Both the position numbers and the translations under genes were made by a program. This document shows, piece after piece, positions 1,741-31,881 of a DNA stretch of 37,394 bases. Origin of the DNA: Saprospiraceae bacterium (GTDB lineage Bacteria; Bacteroidota; Bacteroidia; Chitinophagales; Saprospiraceae); the NCBI GenBank assembly GCA_020629965.1, contig JAHDCG010000054.1, positions 1 to 37,394 on the forward strand, given 5' to 3'. The notes beneath the pieces are model-generated. The model made no database searches. It was not told the DNA's origin and saw nothing but the letters and a program-made list of their open reading frames with translations. Position 1 is the first letter of the stretch. Each line of letters begins with the position of its first letter.

Positions 1741-1792
1741 ATTACTCACCGGGTGACTCACTTGTCCCTCAGGAAAGTCACTTTTTGAGTAA
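1741..1792. repeat. Copy 1 (expanded loop) of a nested-palindrome intergenic repeat family: TTACTCAC-(C/A)GGGTGACTC...AGTCAC-TTTTTGAGTAA
   Basis: Outer arms are ttactca and tgagtaa. Inner arms are gtgact and agtcac. Related copies lie at 6701-6741 and 31821-31881. Confidence 0.7.
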
Positions 1793-1860
1793 AAGCAAAG
1801 CATCGACCGATTTGACCCGCGACCAAAGTTTACCGCGAACCAAAGCCGCTTTCCGGAGCA

Positions 1861-1885
1861 AGACGTCGCAATGCAACGTCTCTAC
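1861..1885. repeat. Hairpin-containing 25-bp repeat (agacgtcgcaatgcaacgtctctac). An inverted, near-identical copy is at 7944-7968
   Basis: The reverse complement is gtagagacgttgcattgcgacgtct. Sequence at 7944-7968 is gtagagacgttgcactgccacgtct, a 23/25 match. Both copies lie 3' of plus-strand genes. Confidence 0.5.
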
Positions 1886-2006
1886 TAATTTACCCTCCGG
1901 AATTTTAACGGAATAAACGAACACTCTGTCTTCCCTCCGAGAGATAAGCGACAAGAGACTTCAATAAAGAAAACTCAACATCAAAGCCACCGCCCTTCCC
2001 CCGAGC

Positions 2007-2047
2007 AATCGTACATCGTAATTCGTAAATCGTAAATCGTACATCGT
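2007..2047. repeat. Short tandem repeat (tcgtaNa)x5-6 immediately 3' of the M36 peptidase gene
   Basis: Read directly: aatcgtacatcgtaattcgtaaatcgtaaatcgtacatcgtt. Confidence 0.6.
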
Positions 2048-2054
2048 TCCAAGC

Positions 2055-5000
2055 CTATTTAGCAATCACCACCTTCTCCGAGTACGTTTGACCCTCCGCA
2101 GTCACCTGCAAAAAGTAGAAACCGTCGGATAGTGCGCTGACGTTGACCGGCAGATTGGTTTCGCCGCTCGCCGTTACGTTGTAAGATTGCAAGGTGCGAC
2201 CGTCAACCGTGTGCAAAGTGACATTGACTTCCGTAGCGGTCGTCGTGTTCATGCGCACGTGAATGAAGTCCTGCGCAGGATTCGGGAATACCGAAACGCT
2301 CAAATCTTCCGTGACCGGCTCGAAGGTCGAGCTGACAACCTGACTCTCCACGACCGTACCGCGACCGGCGGGCGTCGCACAGGCTTCGTCGCCGTCCGCA
2401 CTGCTGACGCAGGCATCGCTCACGTAGTTTTTCATGTCCATAAACTCGAAGTCGTCGATGGCCCAACCGAAACCGGCACCGCCGGCGTTCGTACCGAACA
2501 TCCAACGCAGGTAAACTTCCTGACCCGCAAAGGCACTCATGTCGGCGTAAGAGGCAATCCAACCGTCAGAGTCACCCGAGAAGGCGTTCAAATTCGGAAC
2601 GACAAAAGTCTGGTATTGTACCTGCGCCGGGTAGTCGCCCCGGAAGAAATCCGCGCCGGCATCCTGCCATACGCTGCCCTCCAGAGGGTCTTCGTCGAGC
2701 GTCAACTGGAACAAACCGGCATCCGCACCCGCTTCGGTGTCATAGTTGTGGTAAAAACGAATGACCGGTTGATCACCGTCGATTAACAGACGGTCGATGT
2801 TCAACAAAGCATCCTGACTTTCTTCGTCCGGATTCGAGACAAAGAAAGAGTTGTTGCCGCTGTTTGACAATGCGTCCGTCAGTTGGAAGCTGTTTTCCAA
2901 ATCATCGTCGCTGAAAGTGTTGAAGAAATAGTTGCTCACGTCGCCTTCCATATCGTCGATAAAACGGGTGACGGAGAAAATATCGGGGTCGGTCGCAAAT
3001 TTGTAAGTCAATACAATTTCATCTTCAAAAGCCATCGTGCCGAGATCGAAGCTGACCATATTGCCGTTGACCGTACCTGCGATGCTGCCGCTGCCGGCTA
3101 CATAAGTCGTTCCTTCCGGAATTTCGTCGGTCACGACTACGCCGTCAACCGGGTCGGGTTTGTGATTGATAACCGTTACGGTTACGTCGATATCGTCGCC
3201 GGCATCTACCAACGGCGTTACTTCTTTGCTGATTTTCAACTCTTGAATACAAGTCGGACGCGGCTCGAAGTCTTCCGATTGGTCGGTAGCCGAGTTAGGG
3301 CTGCCTTGGTCGGCAAAGAAACCGGCACCGCGACGCGCGAATACTTCCCAAATCAAACACTGATTAGCACCGTCGTATAGTGCCATATCCGCCGCCAAAA
3401 TCGCATCCCGACCGTCTAAAAAACCGGGCGAACAAGCCTGATTTTTCATACCTTCAAAAACTAAGCGAACAGCTTTGTTGTTACCGCCGGTGCCTTCGTA
3501 AACGTCCGGGTCCCAGCCGTCTTGCTCCACAAATGCCCAGTACAAATCCCAAATCATGTTACACCACACCTCACCGATGGCATGTACCCCGGTGTTGCCC
3601 GCTACGTCGCCGTAAGTCAGGGGGCTGATGTTCATATCGGTAGAGTAAGGGAAACGGCGAATACCGCGACCGTCATTCGGCTGACGCTGTACGAAAGTAC
3701 CGACGCCGCGACGCATATCGCCCGTGTCGCCTTCCTGCGTACCCAAGACCAAGCCCATGAAATCGGACCAGCCTTCGCCCATTTGCTCCGCATTGCCGAG
3801 AGAACCTTGATTGGGACCGCAAGTCAAACGAATAGAAATACCGTGACCGAATTCGTGCGCGATGATACCGTTGTCGAAGTCACCGTCGAGTTTTTCCGGA
3901 CCGGTCATGACCGGCGCGGAGATAGTTGCCTGTAAACCGTCGTCCCCCGCAAATTCGCGGATAGAAGCACAGTCGATACTCTTCATCGACACTACGGGGA
4001 TGGTCACGGAGTTACCGTCGGCACCCGCTGCCATATTGATAGTCGCATCTTCAAAATTACAAATAATGACACCTACCGCACCCGCTTGCTCGGCAGCCAA
4101 GGCTTTAGAACCGAACTCACAACCGCCGCGGTCGATGAGGGCAATTTTACCCGTCAATTCCGTTACGTTTTGGATAGCTTCGCAAGCGTCCGTGCTGTAA
4201 GGGTTAAAAATTTGGTCATTAACGATGGTCACACCCGCCGTCACGCCCGGCTCGCCCGGTAAAATTTGCGCACCCCAGTCCGCAGTACCCGTATCGTAAG
4301 CACCGCCGACGCTCGCCGGCTCATTCACCTGCAAAAACTGCGAACCGCCGCCGGCACCCCACACGAACATATTGATGCTCGGAGATGTACCGTCGTTGGC
4401 GTGCGAGTAGAAAGCATTGTCTTCCTGACCGGCATCCGCGCCCGCCTGTGCGAGTGCGTCGATGGGGTCGCCGCCGATACCGCCGCCGCCGTAGTTATTT
4501 TCTTGAAAAGCACCTTCGGAGGTGTTCATACCGTTGGCGAAAGCGAAATCGTGCATGATGTTAGTCATGTAAAACAAGTTCGTTACCGCAGCGGGAATAA
4601 TCTCTTCCGGCTCCGCATCCGCATCGTAGGGCGGGTCGAAAATCAGGTCATCACCGCCGTCGGGTTCGTCGCCTGCCGAGCTTTGGTTGTCGTCGCGGTC
4701 TTCCCACGCCCAGGTGTTGTTACCGCGTGTGATGGTAAATTCGGGACCGTCCACCCCGTCGGTGTCGTGCCAACCGAAAGGAGAAGCGGGCAGGTAAGCG
4801 GGATTTTGTACTACGGAGCGGTCACCGTGTGCGGGGCTTTCCAAAGGCAAAGCAAATACGGTGTACTGTGCATTGTCTTCGGCGAGCATTTCTACGGCTG
4901 CCGCTTGCGTCGTCAGAGCTTCTTGTACGTTGCCGAGACCTGCGGGCTTTTCGCGGCAGGCTGCGTCGTGGTTGTGGTAAGCATCGTTGGTGTGTGCGCA

Positions 5001-5630: not shown

Positions 5631-5933
5631 ACTAAATTTTTAAGTGGCAAAGAAAATCGTCGGACGTTCTCGTGATTTTCAGCCGGTTTTGATAAGTCTG
5701 TAGAAGTTGTCCGTACAAAAAGTACAAACAGGCTGCCAAAGATAAGAAAAAGTGTAATATCTTGCTTAGGCTTTTGTCAGAATAGGGTTAAACAATGTTA
5801 ATGCGGTAAGAAATCGGGCGGAATGTTAAGCGGGTGACAAGCGGACGGGAGAGATTGCATACAAATGCCAACGGCATGAAGTACTTCAGCCCGGTATGTA
5901 AGTGCCGGGAGAAACAAAACACCGAAATAAAAT

Positions 5934-6563
5934 CTACCGCGTCCACGCCCGCCAATCTTTCTCCTCCGGAAAAATATCGTACAAATCAATTTTCAAAGCG
6001 GGCAACAAAGCGGATTTTAAATTTTCACCTAAAGTAAAAAACGGCAAACGCGTCGTATACTTACCGGTTTTTTCGTGTAATGAGTAAACAATGATGAAAA
6101 AATGCAGCGGGTCGATAATCCAATATTCTTTAACGCCGGCGGCTTCGTAGAGCAGAAATTTATCTTTCATTTCTCGTTTGGCGTTGCCTTGATTTAAAAT
6201 TTCGACCGCTAAATCCGGTATGCCGATAAGTCCGTCTTTGTCAAATTTATCATCATCGAAAGTCAAAGAAATATCGGGCTGCACGACAATGTCTAATTTT
6301 CCTTTTTCTATTCCCTTGACTTCTCTCTGCAAATGCACATCGAAAGGCGCAGGCAGTAAGTCAAATCGACGTTCTTGACTATACAAATGCTGTGCAATTC
6401 GGAAGATGACCTGCCCCGAAACGTACTGATGCAAAGTACCCGTTTTCGGTATTAAAACGGGTCTGCCGTGCAGTAATTCTACGCGTTCTTCAAACTGCCA
6501 CGCGCAATAATCCGCATAGGTGTATCTGCCGGAAAAATCCAATTGGTCGAGCGATGTAAGCAT
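5934..6563 (-). CDS. Uma2-family (DUF820) PD-(D/E)XK-type putative restriction-endonuclease-like protein
   Basis: Length 209 aa. Characteristic core ...PDLAVEILNQGNAKREMKDKFLLYEAAGVKEYWIIDP (D...E-I-L-S/N-x-x-N/T...K...Y...G..EYWIIDP). Confidence 0.8.
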   Translation of the reverse strand: MLTSLDQLDFSGRYTYADYCAWQFEERVELLHGRPVLIPKTGTLHQYVSGQVIFRIAQHLYSQERRFDLLPAPFDVHLQREVKGIEKGKLDIVVQPDISLTFDDDKFDKDGLIGIPDLAVEILNQGNAKREMKDKFLLYEAAGVKEYWIIDPLHFFIIVYSLHEKTGKYTTRLPFFTLGENLKSALLPALKIDLYDIFPEEKDWRAWTR

Positions 6564-6700: not shown

Positions 6701-6741
6701 AATTACTCACAGGGTGACTCGAAGTCACCTTTTGAGTAATT
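6701..6741. repeat. Copy 2 of the nested-palindrome repeat (aattactcacagggtgactcgaagtcaccttttgagtaatt)
   Basis: Outer 9-bp arms are aattactca and tgagtaatt. Inner 6-bp arms are ggtgac and gtcacc around tcgaa. It lies in the Uma2/tas intergenic spacer. Confidence 0.75.
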
Positions 6742-7824: not shown

Positions 7825-8024
7825 GGTTGGGTGACAGGTGGTGGTTGATAGGTGGTAGAAGGCTACGGGGTTTTGCTTACCTTTGCGGGAGGTTGAGGGG
7901 TTTGGAGGTTGGGGAGTTGGGCGGTTGGGGAAAGCACGGAGTTGTAGAGACGTTGCACTGCCACGTCTTACTATGAAAAAACGAAAGCGGCGAAATAACC
8001 GAAAAAATAAACAAAGAAAGGACT

Positions 8025-8530
8025 CAAAATTTTAAAGATGAAACCACAGACTCAAGCCCGGAGAAAGTTCCCCGCTCCGGGGTTAGGGGTTTAGAAACAC
8101 AGGACAGAGCCGTACTAAAAACCCCCGACCCCGGAGCGGGGAGAACATATTTTCACAACTGAAATTCGTCTTGAATTAAAATTCGATTGCAAAAGGGGAA
8201 TCTCAAATTTTACTGTTTTACAAAAATCAGAGAACCAAAAATTTTAAAGATGAAACCACAGACTCAAGCCCGGAGAAAGTTCCCCCGATTCGGCCTGTCC
8301 CGACTTCAGTCGCGGAGGTTAGGGGTTTAGAAACACAGGACAGAGCCGTACTAAAAACCCCCGACCCCGGAGCGGGGAGAACATATTTTCACAACTGAAA
8401 TTCGTCTTGAATTAAAATTCGATTGCAAAAGGGGAATCTCAAATTTTACTGTTTTACAAAAATGAGAGAACCAAAAATTTTAAAGATTAAATCACAGACT
8501 CAAGCCCGGAGAAAGTTCCCCCGATTCGGG
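8025..8530. repeat. Tandem direct repeat, unit about 212 bp, about 2.3 copies (8025-8236, 8237-8472 with a ~24-bp insertion, and a truncated third copy 8473-8530). Each full unit carries a long GC-rich stem-loop
   Basis: Copy 1 hairpin: ccccgctccgggg (8070-8082) pairs with ccccggagcgggg (8129-8141). An inner stem ggggttt/aaacccc sits in the loop. In copy 2 the left arm is disrupted by an insertion (cccccgattcggcctgtcccgacttcagtcgcggagg). Copy 3 retains only cccccgattcggggg. The array lies between tas and obg. Confidence 0.8.
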
Positions 8531-9749: not shown

Positions 9750-11417
9750 ATGTCAAAAAAACCGATAATTTTCTCCATCGACGACGACCCGCAGGTATTG
9801 CGGGCGGTGCGCCGCGATTTGCGCTCGGAGTACAAAGAAGACTACCGCATTGTTTCGACCGAGAGTGCGAAAGATGCTTTGGAAACGCTGAAAGAATTGA
9901 AAAAGAAGGGGGAAGATATTGCCCTTTTTCTCTCCGACCAACGCATGCCCGAAATGCTCGGCGTCGATTTTTTGGCGGAAGCGCAAAAGATTTTTCCCGA
10001 TGCCAAGCAGGTTTTACTGACCGCTTATTCGGATACGGATGCGGCAATAAAAGGCATTAACGATGCCAAGCTGGATTATTATCTGGTCAAGCCGTGGGAC
10101 CCGCCGGAGGAAAAGATGTTTCCCGTGCTGAATGATTTGCTGGACGAATGGCACATTTCGCACCGCTCGGTTTTTCAGGGGATTCGGGTTATCGGTTTTC
10201 AGTATTCGCCCAAATCACACGCGATAAAAGACTTTTTGGCGGGCAATCTGCGTCCTTATCAGTGGCTCGACATCGAACGCAGTACGGAGGCGGAAGAGCT
10301 GGTCGAGTTGCACGGTCTGAAGAAAAACGACATGCCGATTGTCACCTTTGAGGACGGTACTTGCATGCACGACCCGACGCTCGCGGAGTTGGCAAAAAAA
10401 GTAGGATTAAACGCCGAGGCGCAGTCCGATTTATACGACGTCGCCATCATCGGCGCGGGTCCGGCGGGACTGGCGGCGGGCGTGTACGGCGGCTCGGAGG
10501 GTTTGAAAACCTTAGTCATCGAAGCCAACCGACCGGGCGGACAGGCGGGCACTTCCTCGCGCATTGAAAACTATTTGGGCTTTCCGAAAGGGCTGAGCGG
10601 TGCGGAACTGACGCGGCGGGCACTCTCGCAGGCGCAGCGTTTCGGCATTGAATTTTTATCGCCGCAACTGGTCAACGATATACAGCACGAGGGCAATCTG
10701 AAAGTCGTTAAACTCAAAGACGGCAGCGAAGTCAAGACCAAAGCCGTCATCATCGCCACCGGGGTGCAATACCGCAAACTCAACGCCCCGGGCGTCGAGG
10801 ACTTCACGGGCCGCGGTGTCTATTACGGAGCCGCCATGACCGAGGCCAACGCCTGCCGCGACCAAATCGTCTATGTCGTAGGCGGCGGCAACTCGGCGGG
10901 ACAGGGCGCGGTTTATCTTTCCAAATACGCCAAAGAGGTAAAAATTCTCATTCGCAAGCCCGATTTGACCTCCTCCATGTCCTCTTACCTCATCGACCAA
11001 ATCGACTCCATCGACAACATCGAGGTCATGGGCGGCAAGGAAGTCAAAGAGGTTTTCGGCACAGACCACATCGAAGAACTCTGCCTCGCCGACAGCAACG
11101 ACCCGGACAGCTACGGCAAGGTGCGCGCCGACGCGCTCTTCATTTTTATCGGTGCCAAACCCTCGACGGAATGGATTGGCGACGCGATGTACCGCGACGA
11201 AAAAGGCTACTTGGAAACGGGCAGAGATTTGAGTCGCCACAAGTTATTCAAAAAAGGCTGGCGCATCGAACGCGAACCCTTTCTGCTCGAAACCTGCGTC
11301 CCCGGTGTCTTTGCGGCGGGCGATGTACGCTCGGGCGCCATGAACCGCGTGGCGAGTGCCGTGGGCGAAGGAGCAATGGCGATTAAGTTTGTGCACGAGT
11401 ATTTGGGGACGATATGA
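9750..11417 (+). CDS. Three-domain protein: CheY-like receiver + Cys-less glutaredoxin-like domain + thioredoxin-reductase-fold FAD/NAD(P) oxidoreductase lacking the CXXC redox disulfide
   Basis: Residues 1-125 carry receiver hallmarks (IFSIDDDPQVL..., LFLSDQRMPEMLG, ...LVKP). Residues ~150-225 show a glutaredoxin fold with CPYC replaced by SPKS and a conserved cis-Pro (MPIVTFEDG). Residues ~230-555 are TrxR-like: FAD GxGxxG in VAIIGAGPAGLAAGVYG, NAD(P) GGGNSAGQGAVYLS, and C-terminal GVFAAGDV. In place of the TrxR CATC active site the sequence reads GAAMTEANACRDQ. Confidence 0.85.
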   Translation: MSKKPIIFSIDDDPQVLRAVRRDLRSEYKEDYRIVSTESAKDALETLKELKKKGEDIALFLSDQRMPEMLGVDFLAEAQKIFPDAKQVLLTAYSDTDAAIKGINDAKLDYYLVKPWDPPEEKMFPVLNDLLDEWHISHRSVFQGIRVIGFQYSPKSHAIKDFLAGNLRPYQWLDIERSTEAEELVELHGLKKNDMPIVTFEDGTCMHDPTLAELAKKVGLNAEAQSDLYDVAIIGAGPAGLAAGVYGGSEGLKTLVIEANRPGGQAGTSSRIENYLGFPKGLSGAELTRRALSQAQRFGIEFLSPQLVNDIQHEGNLKVVKLKDGSEVKTKAVIIATGVQYRKLNAPGVEDFTGRGVYYGAAMTEANACRDQIVYVVGGGNSAGQGAVYLSKYAKEVKILIRKPDLTSSMSSYLIDQIDSIDNIEVMGGKEVKEVFGTDHIEELCLADSNDPDSYGKVRADALFIFIGAKPSTEWIGDAMYRDEKGYLETGRDLSRHKLFKKGWRIEREPFLLETCVPGVFAAGDVRSGAMNRVASAVGEGAMAIKFVHEYLGTI

Positions 11418-11426
11418 GGGGGTTGA

Positions 11427-11475
11427 GTGAGGCTTACTAACCTTTCGGAAGGTTAGTAAGCCTCACAGATTTTTC
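11427..11475 (+). terminator. Rho-independent terminator (18-bp perfect stem, loop tcgg, T-run) directly after the REC-TrxR-like gene; also module A of a BOX-like modular repeat
   Basis: Stem gtgaggcttactaacctt, loop tcgg, stem aaggttagtaagcctcac, followed by agattttt. Confidence 0.65.
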
Positions 11476-11612
11476 GATAGCCCATCGACTAAATTCGATG
11501 CTACGGCACAACCACCTCTTCCTAAAACTTACTCAGTTGGCGCGTGGTTTTACCTCGTGCCGTTCATTACCCCTTGAGAGGCAGGCAAGGCGAGAACCTC
11601 GCGCGAACGTGT
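11427..11612. repeat. Left modular repeat block (sub-elements A 11427-11466, B 11476-11519, C 11534-11568, D 11570-11609) 5' of the AT-rich gene
   Basis: Each sub-element reappears at 85-95% identity on the other side of the gene in the order C, insert, D, A, B (12388-12658). Confidence 0.75.
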
Positions 11613-11629
11613 TAACTTAATTCCATACA

Positions 11630-12367
11630 TTATTTCGCTTTTTGAACATCACGCATAAATTTTCTCCTTTTTTCGAAAAAATCATTTGTTTTCTTTCTGC
11701 CCAAAAACCATTGTTCTTCCGTAAACTCAAAAATTTCAACATCACTTTTTCTTTCGGGAGGAAAATCCTCTTCGTCATATACGGGATTCGATAAATAAAC
11801 TCTGAAACCTATAGTAGTATGAGATTCTCCCCATAACATTCCTTCATCGGGAAAGATATAGTTCCCAATCTTTTCTGCTTTAATTCTTCTCAAACAGTTT
11901 TCTACACGATTAGAATTAATAATTGCTAAATCAATTTGATACTCTTTATCATCTTTCACAGGTAGTACAAAATCACTGTGGACACCTATACTAATTTCGT
12001 AAATAGTTAAATCCAAATGTAAGATTATAAGTTTTTCCTCCAATTTTTCGCTTAGCTTAGTATTTGTATCACCAAATAAAAGTAAATATTTCAAGTTTTC
12101 ATTACAAATTGACTCATCCATCAAAGATTTAATAAAATTATCTTCTGATATAAAAATCTCCTGTCTTGGTGCCGGATGAAAACTAGCATGCACTTTGTTG
12201 AGAAAGAATAGCTCGCACTCTTTTAAAATTTTTAAAACTTCTATAAGGATTTCAATTCTCTTCTTGACGTCATGTATGGTATTTTTTCTTTTGAAACCTT
12301 GACTATAAAAATCCTTATCCTTTAAGTCAATAGTCCATACTCCAAGAGCCTCGTTATATTTTTTCAT
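11630..12367 (-). CDS. Hypothetical protein (245 aa), strongly AT-rich relative to the surrounding DNA; probable horizontally acquired cargo gene
   Basis: Long uninterrupted ORF on the minus strand. By eye its GC is about 30% against 55-60% in the flanks. It is bracketed by homologous repeat modules. No recognisable catalytic motif. Confidence 0.6.
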   Translation of the reverse strand: MKKYNEALGVWTIDLKDKDFYSQGFKRKNTIHDVKKRIEILIEVLKILKECELFFLNKVHASFHPAPRQEIFISEDNFIKSLMDESICNENLKYLLLFGDTNTKLSEKLEEKLIILHLDLTIYEISIGVHSDFVLPVKDDKEYQIDLAIINSNRVENCLRRIKAEKIGNYIFPDEGMLWGESHTTIGFRVYLSNPVYDEEDFPPERKSDVEIFEFTEEQWFLGRKKTNDFFEKRRKFMRDVQKAK

Positions 12368-12387
12368 TCAACTATCTATTTAAGAAT

Positions 12388-12658
12388 CAGTTGGCGCGTG
12401 GTTTTACCTCGTGCCTTTCACTTTCCCGTCTCCGGCGGATTTTGAATACAGATATTAATTCTGCTTTTACCTTTCCGCCGGAGGCGGGCTAATGTATCAC
12501 ACCTTGAGAGGCAGGCGAGGCAAGAGCCTCGCGCGAACGGTTTGAGTTCAAGACTTACTAACCTTCCGAAAGGTTAGTAGGCCTCACGCCGGCCGATACT
12601 TATTCGGTTTCCCGGATAGCCCATCGACTAAAGTCGATGCTACGGCACAGCCACCTCT
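12388..12658. repeat. Right modular repeat block (C 12388-12421, unique hairpin insert 12422-12500, D 12502-12540, A 12552-12587, B 12614-12658)
   Basis: Direct-orientation homologues of the left block. The insert carries a 14-bp imperfect inverted repeat (ccgtctccggcgga ... tccgccggaggcgg) around an AT-rich 38-nt loop. Confidence 0.75.
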
Positions 12659-12670
12659 CCCCTCAAACCC

Positions 12671-14110
12671 CTACCCATCCGAAGCCCGAATCTTAGTACT
12701 CCGCTGTATCCAGCACGGCACAAAGTAAGTGTCGCCGACCTTTAGACTGCGGATGAATATGTCCTCTTTGCTCGGCATGTACTGCGAGTATTGATTGATA
12801 AATTTATTCGCTTCGGCCGCCGAGGAGGGGTCGATGCTTTTGGCTTTGTACCACATATCCAGTGCCGTCCAAACGACGACCTGACTGTTCCAGCCGCGCC
12901 CCGAGCCGCACAACGGGCCGGAGGAAGCGTACATTCTGCCGATGAGCAGATAGGGTTCGCCCCAACCGCCTTTGAGGTCAGCGGCTTCCAGTGCGTAGCG
13001 TCGCGCCTGACTGAAGTTTTTCAGGTGAGCGTAGTAGATTTTGGCGACGAGCATGGTGTATTTAGCTTTCTTTTCGGGGTCGGTTTCGTCGGCAGCTTTG
13101 GTTTTGAAGCAATCCAAGGCCTCGGTGTAATTTGCGTCGCGCAATAGGTCATAGCAAGGATTTTGCGCTACGCGGCAGTCCGTTTGGTATTTTTGGTAAA
13201 TCTCGTTGTACTCCGGCGAGTTAGCTTCCGTGCAGCCGCCGAATTTCAGACGACTCAACACCGTCAGCACATTATCGCAGTCACCGGGACTGGCTTGGTA
13301 CTCCGGGTAGTATTTTTCCGTGAAATAAGCACAGTCGTAAAAGCCTTTAACGCGCTCGAAATATTCCAATCGCTCGGGCAGATAACCTTTGATTTCTTTG
13401 TACAAATCACAGTCCGAGCCTTTGCACTCTTCGGTTTGCTTTTTGAGTGCATCGTTCAGCATTTGCACGTACTTTTTGGCTTCTTCGTCCGTAATTTTTT
13501 CCTCGTAGTGCATATCGACGAGCAGGGCACCGAAGGGATTCATGATGAAGTACGGCATGTCGTCTCCGCCCTTTTCGGCGGCTGTGCGCAGCAGTTCGAA
13601 GGTCTCTTCTTTGCTGCTGCGGTTGGGATATTTATAAAACAAATCGAAGCCTTTGCGTGCGCCGGCGTAGTTTTCCGCGCCCGGGTAGCAGCGTTCCGTC
13701 TCGTCGTACAGCTTAAATATTTCGTCGATGTACTCGTTTATTTTCGTGCTGTCCTGCGTCTGACTGATGAAAACTTCGTAAAAATAAATCCCGTCCAAAT
13801 AGACCGTATTGCGCTGACCGTCGGCGGCGGGGGCTTTTTCGTACACCGTTTTCCAGCGTTTAAAAGCCTCTTCAATTTCATCGTTTTTCAGCATATCTCG
13901 GTAAATGACGTACTGATTTTCGGTATCGTCTTTCTCTTGATACGGCAAATCCTGAAACTTCTTACACGGACTCAAATCGGTCGGCGGCGGGGTCGGCGGG
14001 GTCGGTGTTTGGGTGACCGGTTCGGTGACCGTCTTCGGAGTTTTCGGAGTGCAGGAAAAGGCGAAAATTGCCAAAAGAAGGGCGGCGAAGAGTTTGCTTT
14101 GGAATGTCAT
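12671..14110 (-). CDS. Lipoprotein with helical/TPR-like repeats, function unknown
   Basis: Signal peptide plus lipobox (LLLAIFAFSC). Pro/Thr-rich linker PTPPTPPPTD. Many Cys pairs and a helical-repeat composition. The opposite-strand ORF 13163-14182 has typical antisense V/F/L/R-rich junk composition. Confidence 0.7.
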   Translation of the reverse strand: MTFQSKLFAALLLAIFAFSCTPKTPKTVTEPVTQTPTPPTPPPTDLSPCKKFQDLPYQEKDDTENQYVIYRDMLKNDEIEEAFKRWKTVYEKAPAADGQRNTVYLDGIYFYEVFISQTQDSTKINEYIDEIFKLYDETERCYPGAENYAGARKGFDLFYKYPNRSSKEETFELLRTAAEKGGDDMPYFIMNPFGALLVDMHYEEKITDEEAKKYVQMLNDALKKQTEECKGSDCDLYKEIKGYLPERLEYFERVKGFYDCAYFTEKYYPEYQASPGDCDNVLTVLSRLKFGGCTEANSPEYNEIYQKYQTDCRVAQNPCYDLLRDANYTEALDCFKTKAADETDPEKKAKYTMLVAKIYYAHLKNFSQARRYALEAADLKGGWGEPYLLIGRMYASSGPLCGSGRGWNSQVVVWTALDMWYKAKSIDPSSAAEANKFINQYSQYMPSKEDIFIRSLKVGDTYFVPCWIQRSTKIRASDG

Positions 14111-31820: not shown

Positions 31821-31881
31821 GGTTGCCGTTTTTTACTCACAGGGTGACTCAAAGTCACCTTTTGAGTAAAAAACGGCAACC
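31821..31881. repeat. Copy 3 of the nested-palindrome repeat, here a 61-bp near-perfect palindrome between the GGR stop and the ferredoxin start (inside the operon)
   Basis: ggttgccgttttttactca-c-agggtgact-caaa-gtcacc-ttt-tgagtaaaaaacggcaacc. Outer stem 19 bp, inner stem 7 bp. No flanking U-tract on either strand. Confidence 0.8.

Follow-up and report, generated by a model that had tools for sequence, protein, structure and literature searches.

A solitary AT-rich gene of a putative immunity family, enclosed by nested direct repeats in a Saprospiraceae genome

Introduction

Orphan modules made up of a toxin C-terminal domain and an immunity gene are known from contact-dependent inhibition (CDI), Rhs and other polymorphic toxin loci, described by Zhang, Aravind and co-workers. 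For the orphan immunity genes of gut Bacteroidales, the benefit proposed is resistance without a weapon. In the acquired interbacterial defence (AID) clusters of these bacteria and their recombinase-associated form, rAID-1, low-GC immunity genes occur together with a XerD-like recombinase and with repeats in the intergenic regions; an rAID-1 cluster is delimited by a tyrosine recombinase of the XerD type at its 5' end and at least two co-directional downstream genes of at most 41% GC (Ross et al., bioRxiv 10.1101/471110). Here we analyse a 245-aa open reading frame (ORF) enclosed by nested direct repeats in a stretch of 37,394 nt from a Saprospiraceae bacterium (GenBank assembly GCA_020629965.1, contig JAHDCG010000054.1), hereafter the window. 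With a probability of roughly 60%, we consider the ORF to be a horizontally acquired, solitary immunity gene from a low-GC donor, which would be expressed by read-through and whose surrounding repeats would be the footprint of the construction or import of the tract.

The closest known kind of locus is the orphan immunity gene. In common with such genes and with the AID and rAID-1 clusters, the window holds a low-GC immunity-type gene without a toxin, in a Bacteroidota host, with skewed GC content and repeats around the gene. The differences from rAID-1 are that a single gene is present rather than an array, that the co-oriented neighbour is of 51% GC, that no XerD-like recombinase lies in the 37 kb of the window, and that the repeats are nested duplications which include a host terminator. 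Moreover, unlike the hosts of AID and rAID-1, the organism is Saprospiraceae-like and not of the Bacteroidales, and the protein matches no known immunity family. The orphan toxin/immunity modules find their likeness in homologues of the ORF at three other loci (L019, L020 and L022 in our numbering), where the immunity gene comes after a 3' remnant of the toxin and such modules are arrayed downstream of a large toxin, whereas the window copy has no toxin remnant (at most 19 nt are left) and sits between housekeeping genes, far from toxin loci.

A protein family coupled to a toxin-like domain

Neither the ORF nor its relatives matched Pfam, PADLOC, NCBIfam or PHROGs. A word-indexed protein search recovered the ORF alone, and the profile version of this search three relatives only; an exhaustive HMMER search returned about 10 relatives of ~230 aa with 24-34% identity (best E = 4e-16). 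Thus, the sequence-only reading that preceded this work was right in that no curated family applies, but the gene is no orphan, having distant homologues. The family is recognised by the motifs SDLWxP, YQIDLAxLNxxRLExCLxxIK, PDEG and GFR. A further member was added by tblastn on plasmid pAT5 of Aureibacter tunicatorum (hhalign probability 100%), a second one is held by L019, and no relative was detected in phages (tblastn) or viral contigs. The homologues whose DNA was examined are of 25-31% GC and reside in DNA of 32-38% GC, and two of their loci were shown to be Bacteroidota. On the structural side, a PDB sequence profile search with the family was empty, Foldseek against the PDB gave no match with structural similarity being weak, and an AlphaFold2 model generated without alignment was unusable (pLDDT 36). 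Compared with Imm52/TsiT (PA3908) and PA0821-type immunity proteins of the type VI secretion system, no sequence similarity was detectable, and the fold match is only suggestive.

The genomic position of the homologues is more telling. On pAT5, the family member begins 4 nt past the gene of a 1525-aa protein (L043, NZ_AP025310.1 34393-38970), and in L023 it begins 2 nt past that of a 469-aa protein (1749-3158). The C-terminal ~190 aa of these two proteins are homologous (E = 6e-11) and share the motifs D(I/V)D(Y/F)G, AYQ(F/L)K and KI(F/Y)E(V/I)EM.SGT, with no Pfam match for the domain. Using this domain in tblastn, we detected the domain or its decayed remains immediately ahead of all other members, namely twice in L019 (181 aa, with stop codons, and 23 aa), in L020/L021 (30 aa) and in L022 (69 aa, identical to L023). 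Weak PT-HINT (pretoxin-HINT) matches were obtained with the giant proteins encoded upstream in L019 and L020, and an EndoU toxin is also present in L022. A gene that starts 2-4 nt behind a toxin C-terminal domain and co-varies with it shows the classical hallmark of cognate immunity. As this is the standard layout of a polymorphic-toxin C-terminal domain with its immunity module, we conclude from gene order and co-occurrence that the family is the predicted cognate immunity partner of an unnamed toxin C-terminal domain. An immunity-type cargo, one of the candidates put forward by the sequence-only reading, is congruent with these homologues, and for the window copy we infer the same function.

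Hairpin repeats were also observed at some of the homologue loci. L022 (5537-7497) and L023 (2924-4842) have a 1.9-kb segment in common, at 99% identity and in different surroundings, which consists of the toxin 3' end, the immunity gene, a hairpin resembling repetitive extragenic palindromes (REP; CCCCGCAGTCGCTCGGCTCTTGCCGAGTGAC), a broken ORF and an inverted copy of the hairpin; L022 contains an extra direct hairpin copy upstream. The broken ORF by the L022 homologue, with a YAYVIM...NHIHLV motif, was considered as a decayed transposase of the HUH/RAYT type (RAYT, REP-associated tyrosine transposase), and this was dropped as Pfam and PDB sequence searches gave no confirmation. In L019, a GC-rich hairpin element of ~110 nt with a nested hairpin at its tip is found in three copies in a low-GC array (2489-2511, 3828-3850 and 5819-5924), separating the duplicated toxin-remnant/immunity modules and echoing the hairpin-gene-hairpin layout of the window.

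Composition of the gene

The ORF has a GC content of 30.5%, compared with 55% and 51% in its neighbours and 49% in the window, and its GC at third codon positions is 26% versus 64-68% in both neighbouring genes. It is the 738-nt stretch of lowest GC in the whole window; the deficit is however 20-25 points overall and not the 25-30 initially estimated. The AT-rich tract is trimmed nearly exactly to the ORF, extending beyond it by only 19 nt on the ATG side and 20 nt on the stop-codon side, and the inner hairpin described below abuts it on both sides. Together with the 32-38% GC DNA in which the examined relatives reside, this trimmed tract supports the view that the ORF is foreign to the host, as had been proposed for the cargo. 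The ORF is intact in all seven other same-species contigs that contain it (L001-L006 and L025), and, by reading of the sequence, the protein is without signal peptide.

Nested direct repeats around the gene

The pocket, as we define it, comprises the 1253 nt from the stop codon of the 555-aa gene to the stop codon of the 479-aa gene. A repeat search of this region recovered four modules, A, B, C and D, each of which is present on both sides of the ORF as direct repeats with 83-94% identity (Table 1), in agreement with the sequence-only reading. Several of its finer observations also hold: module A is a hairpin with an 18-bp stem that acts as terminator of the upstream gene, as indicated by the T-run and by conservation in the sister species, module B includes a CATCGA/TCGATG stem, and the right-hand block carries an extra insert with its own inverted repeat, which forms a hairpin with 15-nt arms. 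The permuted module order that had been suggested does not stand. Modules C and D do abut the gene on both sides, but folding shows that they are two arms of one long hairpin (hp) at both sites rather than separate elements, and local alignment unites A and B into one repeat unit, so that the order is one of nested direct repeats, AB[hp[gene]hp]AB.

Table 1. Positions of the repeats, the AT-rich gene and its neighbours in the window
Feature	Position	Strand	Description
Module A direct repeat	11430-11466 / 12551-12587		89% identity; repeat search
Module B direct repeat	11476-11522 / 12615-12661		94% identity; repeat search
Module C direct repeat	11533-11573 / 12387-12427		90% identity; repeat search
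Module D direct repeat	11566-11618 / 12496-12548		83% identity; repeat search
Module A hairpin, left	11427-11466	+	18-bp perfect stem, 4-nt loop, then T-run; terminator of the 555-aa gene
Module B, left	11476-11522	+	Internal CATCGA/TCGATG stem at 11483-11500
Outer repeat, left copy (AB unit)	11420-11528	+	Local alignment with 12539-12668
Outer repeat, right copy	12539-12668	+	A' (12551-12587), 27-nt extra segment, B' (12615-12661); local alignment
Inner repeat, left copy	11533-11609	+	Single long imperfect hairpin, C arm and D arm, 77 nt, 60% GC
Inner repeat, right copy	12387-12538	+	Same long hairpin, ~75 extra nt at the tip
Nested hairpin in tip of right hairpin	12425-12488	+	15-nt arms 12425-12439 / 12474-12488, 93% complementary, -39.2 kcal/mol
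AT-rich tract, putatively foreign	11610-12386	-	30.1% GC; ORF with 19 nt upstream and 20 nt downstream
245-aa ORF	11630-12367	-	Member of an unnamed family, putative polymorphic-toxin immunity proteins
Left flanking gene	9750-11417	+	555 aa; response-regulator receiver and thioredoxin-reductase-like flavoprotein; Pfam Response_reg, Pyr_redox_2
Right flanking gene	12671-14110	-	479 aa; conserved in Saprospiraceae; co-oriented with and upstream of the ORF; 1151 homologues

By local alignment, the left AB copy starts 3 nt past the 555-aa gene's stop codon, and the right one stops 3 nt short of that of the 479-aa gene. The outer pair represents a duplication of the complete spacer, from one flanking stop codon to the other, including the terminator hairpin A. 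At the right-hand site, an unrelated 27-nt segment, with a small extra hairpin (CCGATACTTATTCGG) inside it, occupies the position of the T-run and separates A' from B'; unlike the left A, A' was not reported as terminator-like. The inner hairpins reach minimum free energies of -37.6 kcal/mol (left) and -79.5 (right) on the + strand versus -29.1 and -65.3 on the - strand, and the left-hand block overall folds with z = -6.6 relative to shuffles. The preference for the + strand is due to G-T/G-U pairs and provides a weak hint that this strand is the relevant one. No further copy of modules A-D was detected in the rest of the 37.4-kb window, and an Rfam scan of 11300-12800 delivered chance-level matches only.

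Flanking genes and the sister species

Homologues of the 479-aa protein are named TPR-type (tetratricopeptide repeat) lipoprotein in their sources, and these names place the organism near Saprospiraceae and Phaeodactylibacter, in agreement with tail domains of the type IX secretion system and GldB elsewhere in the window, which fit Bacteroidota. In a sister species, the orthologue of the 555-aa protein belongs to the same 90%-identity protein cluster, with DNA ~85% identical at the gene end, and is followed by hairpin A, a second terminator and then htpG (contigs L007 and L008), B, hp and the ORF all being absent from the fetched sister-species contigs. Considering that hairpin A lies directly 3' of the orthologue there and that its T-run is on the + strand, the role of the left A as terminator of the 555-aa gene is ancestral. 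For B, homology to the spacer of the sister species was also considered and rejected, as the comparison gave no support.

On the other side, a heptamer repeat and another terminator come after the sister-species orthologue of the 479-aa protein (79% identity), and in more distant relatives the neighbours of this gene differ again. With the two flanking genes not being neighbours outside this species, the empty site is not reconstructable. As a minor observation, the stop codon of the 479-aa orthologue runs into 4-5 copies of the heptamer GAGAGGT in the sister species (L013 2228-2260 and L014 1623-1655), and the window has one GAGAGGTGG at the same position, at the outer end of module B'.

Variation within the species

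We then compared the seven sequences that cover the site, being the window, a second metagenome-assembled genome (MAG; GCA_020628695.1) and five Logan contigs. The 1253-nt pocket contains 7 segregating sites versus 42 in the 1389 coding nucleotides next to it (Fisher p = 1.6e-6), which is polymorphism ~5 times below that of the flanking genes, where variants mostly fall on third codon positions. Five of the seven pocket variants are inside one 44-nt patch (11862-11905) of a single genome, the second MAG (L006). The scarcity of pocket variants relative to the flanks suggests that the tract is much younger than the diversity of the flanks, and a recent sweep of the allele, or presence in only one clade, are possible explanations. 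The patch holds all five ORF substitutions of the second MAG, three of them amino-acid changing (V155I, N157T and N169S), and looks like a conversion patch or a local hotspot.

Origin of the tract and alternative explanations

Collectively, the data are congruent with a gene from a family that, in low-GC genomes, normally directly follows one particular toxin domain at the C-terminus of large secreted polymorphic toxins; in the window genome, the immunity half alone is present, trimmed to the ORF. The protein would bind and neutralise a toxin delivered by a competitor, providing resistance as suggested for the gut Bacteroidales genes. Transcription would probably be achieved by read-through from the co-oriented 479-aa gene, given that A' is without T-run and that no convincing promoter is present in the 19 nt of putatively foreign DNA before the ATG. 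The inner pair represents a duplicated 77-nt hairpin abutting the foreign DNA on both sides. As for the route, two single-crossover (Campbell-type) events may have built the arrangement, or, as a variant, one crossover of a circle already bearing hp-gene-hp and an AB copy; alternatively, the whole pocket may have been imported from a related lineage via homologous recombination in the flanking genes. A tandem-duplication origin (ABCD-gene-ABCD) was rejected, as the observed order does not fit.

Several points weigh against this explanation. The homologues that speak for an immunity role of the window copy are only 24-34% identical to it, none of the eight family members matches Pfam, NCBIfam or PADLOC and hence no curated immunity family (Imm*, SUKH), no toxin gene or recognisable toxin remnant adjoins the ORF in the window, and a convincing promoter is missing from the 19 nt ahead of it. 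Further, the divergence between the left and right copies of the repeats amounts to 6-17%, with indels in addition, far above the within-tract diversity. It follows that the copies were already different when the present allele spread, and a simple recent in-place duplication does not fit; recombination between diverged sequences, or whole-pocket import from a related lineage, fits better.

The family may also have a different role, as an anti-phage or abortive-infection factor, a regulator or an accessory protein of toxin loci, with the lack of a curated family match, the weak structural similarity and the solitary window copy without a nearby toxin being compatible with such functions. We regard this as unlikely, since there is no PADLOC or PHROG match and no phage or viral-contig relative, while homologues begin 2-4 nt after a co-varying toxin C-terminal domain; the apparent lack of a signal peptide likewise argues against it. 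The arrival of the gene, in turn, may be explained by a hairpin-mediated gene cassette, in which the C+D hairpin is a recombination site and a recombinase whose gene lies elsewhere in the genome inserted a circular [gene + hairpin] at a hairpin already resident. Foreign DNA trimmed to the ORF with the same hairpin abutting both sides in direct orientation would be expected from this, GC-rich hairpin repeats also abut family members in the L019 and L022/L023 lineages, and repetitive sequences recalling those of integrons lie between the low-GC immunity genes of rAID-1 arrays (bioRxiv 10.1101/471110). The likeness to integron cassettes extends to a promoterless-looking, trimmed ORF with similar imperfect hairpins in direct orientation at both ends. 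The attC sites of integrons have a variable terminal structure, which the variable tip on a conserved base in the window resembles. However, an integron cassette is defined by an IntI integrase or, as a cluster of attC sites lacking an integrase (CALIN), by at least two attC sites within 4 kb, and the locus shows neither: there is no IntI nearby, the cassette is single, and the hairpin occurs at two sites only. By inspection, the hairpin ends read 5'-GTTGGCGCG...CGCGCGAAC-3' on the + strand and 5'-GTTCGCGCG...CGCGCCAAC-3' on the - strand, that is, the hairpin starts GTT... and finishes ...AAC, the reverse of the attC core motifs (R'' RYYYAAC at the 5' side, R' GTTRRRY at the 3' side), and the attC reading was consequently rejected. 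Nor did the domain matches of the large ORFs in the 37-kb window include a tyrosine or other recombinase, an integrase, a transposase or a RAYT. Searched for across 185,579 genomes representing species and across metagenome and viral contigs, an exact 19-20-mer of the C+D hairpin arm was not found as a hairpin: the four matches of the C-arm 19-mer in the genome collection did not extend past the seed (that in L009 lies inside a long ORF), the 14 matches of the 20-mer in metagenomes had no hairpin partner (13 are in one unrelated conserved sequence context), and viral-contig scans for B, the D arm and A gave no matches. An empty site, which the sequence-only reading had proposed to look for in related genomes, was not encountered either, as every same-species contig reaching the site, including the second MAG, has the ORF with the same flanks, without an alternative cassette among them, and the sister-species gene order differs. 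Hence, of the recombining circular cassette originally envisaged, the geometry is compatible with a Campbell-type insertion, but a single-gene mobile cassette is not borne out; mobility via the repeats is not shown, nor are the repeats shown to be a working mobility device. We accordingly find a hairpin-mediated cassette quite unlikely. The related idea that Saprospiraceae have an undescribed system for capturing immunity-gene cassettes, with the C+D hairpin as attachment site and a recombinase acting in trans, and parallel in function to integrons and rAID-1 arrays, appears very unlikely; under it, the GC-rich hairpin repeats next to family members in two other Bacteroidota lineages (L019 and L022/L023) would be lineage-specific versions of the same device.

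Another possibility, to our judgement distinctly improbable, is that A, B, hp and the nested hairpin are small selfish or structural intergenic repeats, similar to REP or to miniature inverted-repeat transposable elements (MITE), which accumulated independently in the two spacers formed by the gene, with no causal link to the arrival of the gene. Every module is indeed a hairpin, one hairpin is nested in another, a further small one lies between A' and B', a separate palindromic element is dispersed over three window spacers, and REP-like hairpins flank the homologue in L022/L023. Modular, hairpin-forming intergenic blocks are likewise shared with pneumococcal BOX elements and with REP and bacterial interspersed mosaic elements (BIME). 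These families are nevertheless defined by many dispersed copies, whereas here, in the sequence searched, there are two copies per module at one locus, with no other copy in the 37-kb window or in other fetched same-species DNA and none in the ~264 kb of fetched loci. The BOX-like label initially given to the modules is therefore unsupported, there being no evidence that they are dispersed. In addition, the outer unit extends exactly from stop codon to stop codon with the adjacency of A and B kept in both copies, which argues for block duplication rather than independent insertions, and in the sister species hairpin A is no repeat but a conserved terminator.

The locus offers a new protein family and an unusual repeat architecture. 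If the ORF indeed is a horizontally acquired immunity gene, orphan immunity genes would not be confined to the gut Bacteroidales, where they are well documented, but occur in an environmental Saprospiraceae lineage as well, and two uncharacterised families would become defined, a ~230-aa immunity-type protein and a partner ~190-aa toxin C-terminal domain, both of which can be tested directly with the pAT5 pair of a cultured strain. The nested-repeat pocket, as a swept low-diversity tract within polymorphic flanks, would then be an example of the fixation of a single foreign gene between core genes, while the repeats would be of wider interest only if proven to be recombination sites.

Other features of the window

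Repeats unconnected to the pocket were also noted. A palindromic element with 29-nt arms and the core TTACTCACAGGGTGACT...AGTCACCTTTTGAGTAA is present in three spacers (1774-1794, 6703-6739 and 31821-31881), and the genome hence has a REP-like hairpin family, unrelated in sequence to modules A-D. Just upstream of obg (8010-8529), 2-3 tandem copies of a 212-236-nt unit are found, two of them 99% identical, each unit holding a GC-rich hairpin with 24-nt arms (8069-8092 / 8119-8142, and 8355-8378). A tandem repeat with a period of ~135 nt, three copies of which are 83-97% identical, reaches the contig end (37043-37394) and may be the cause of the assembly stop. Among the remaining genes, a 454-aa ATPase_2/AAA_14 gene (288-1652) of ~36% GC, far under the window mean, is probably another foreign gene, and a Uma2 endonuclease-like gene is located at 5934-6563.

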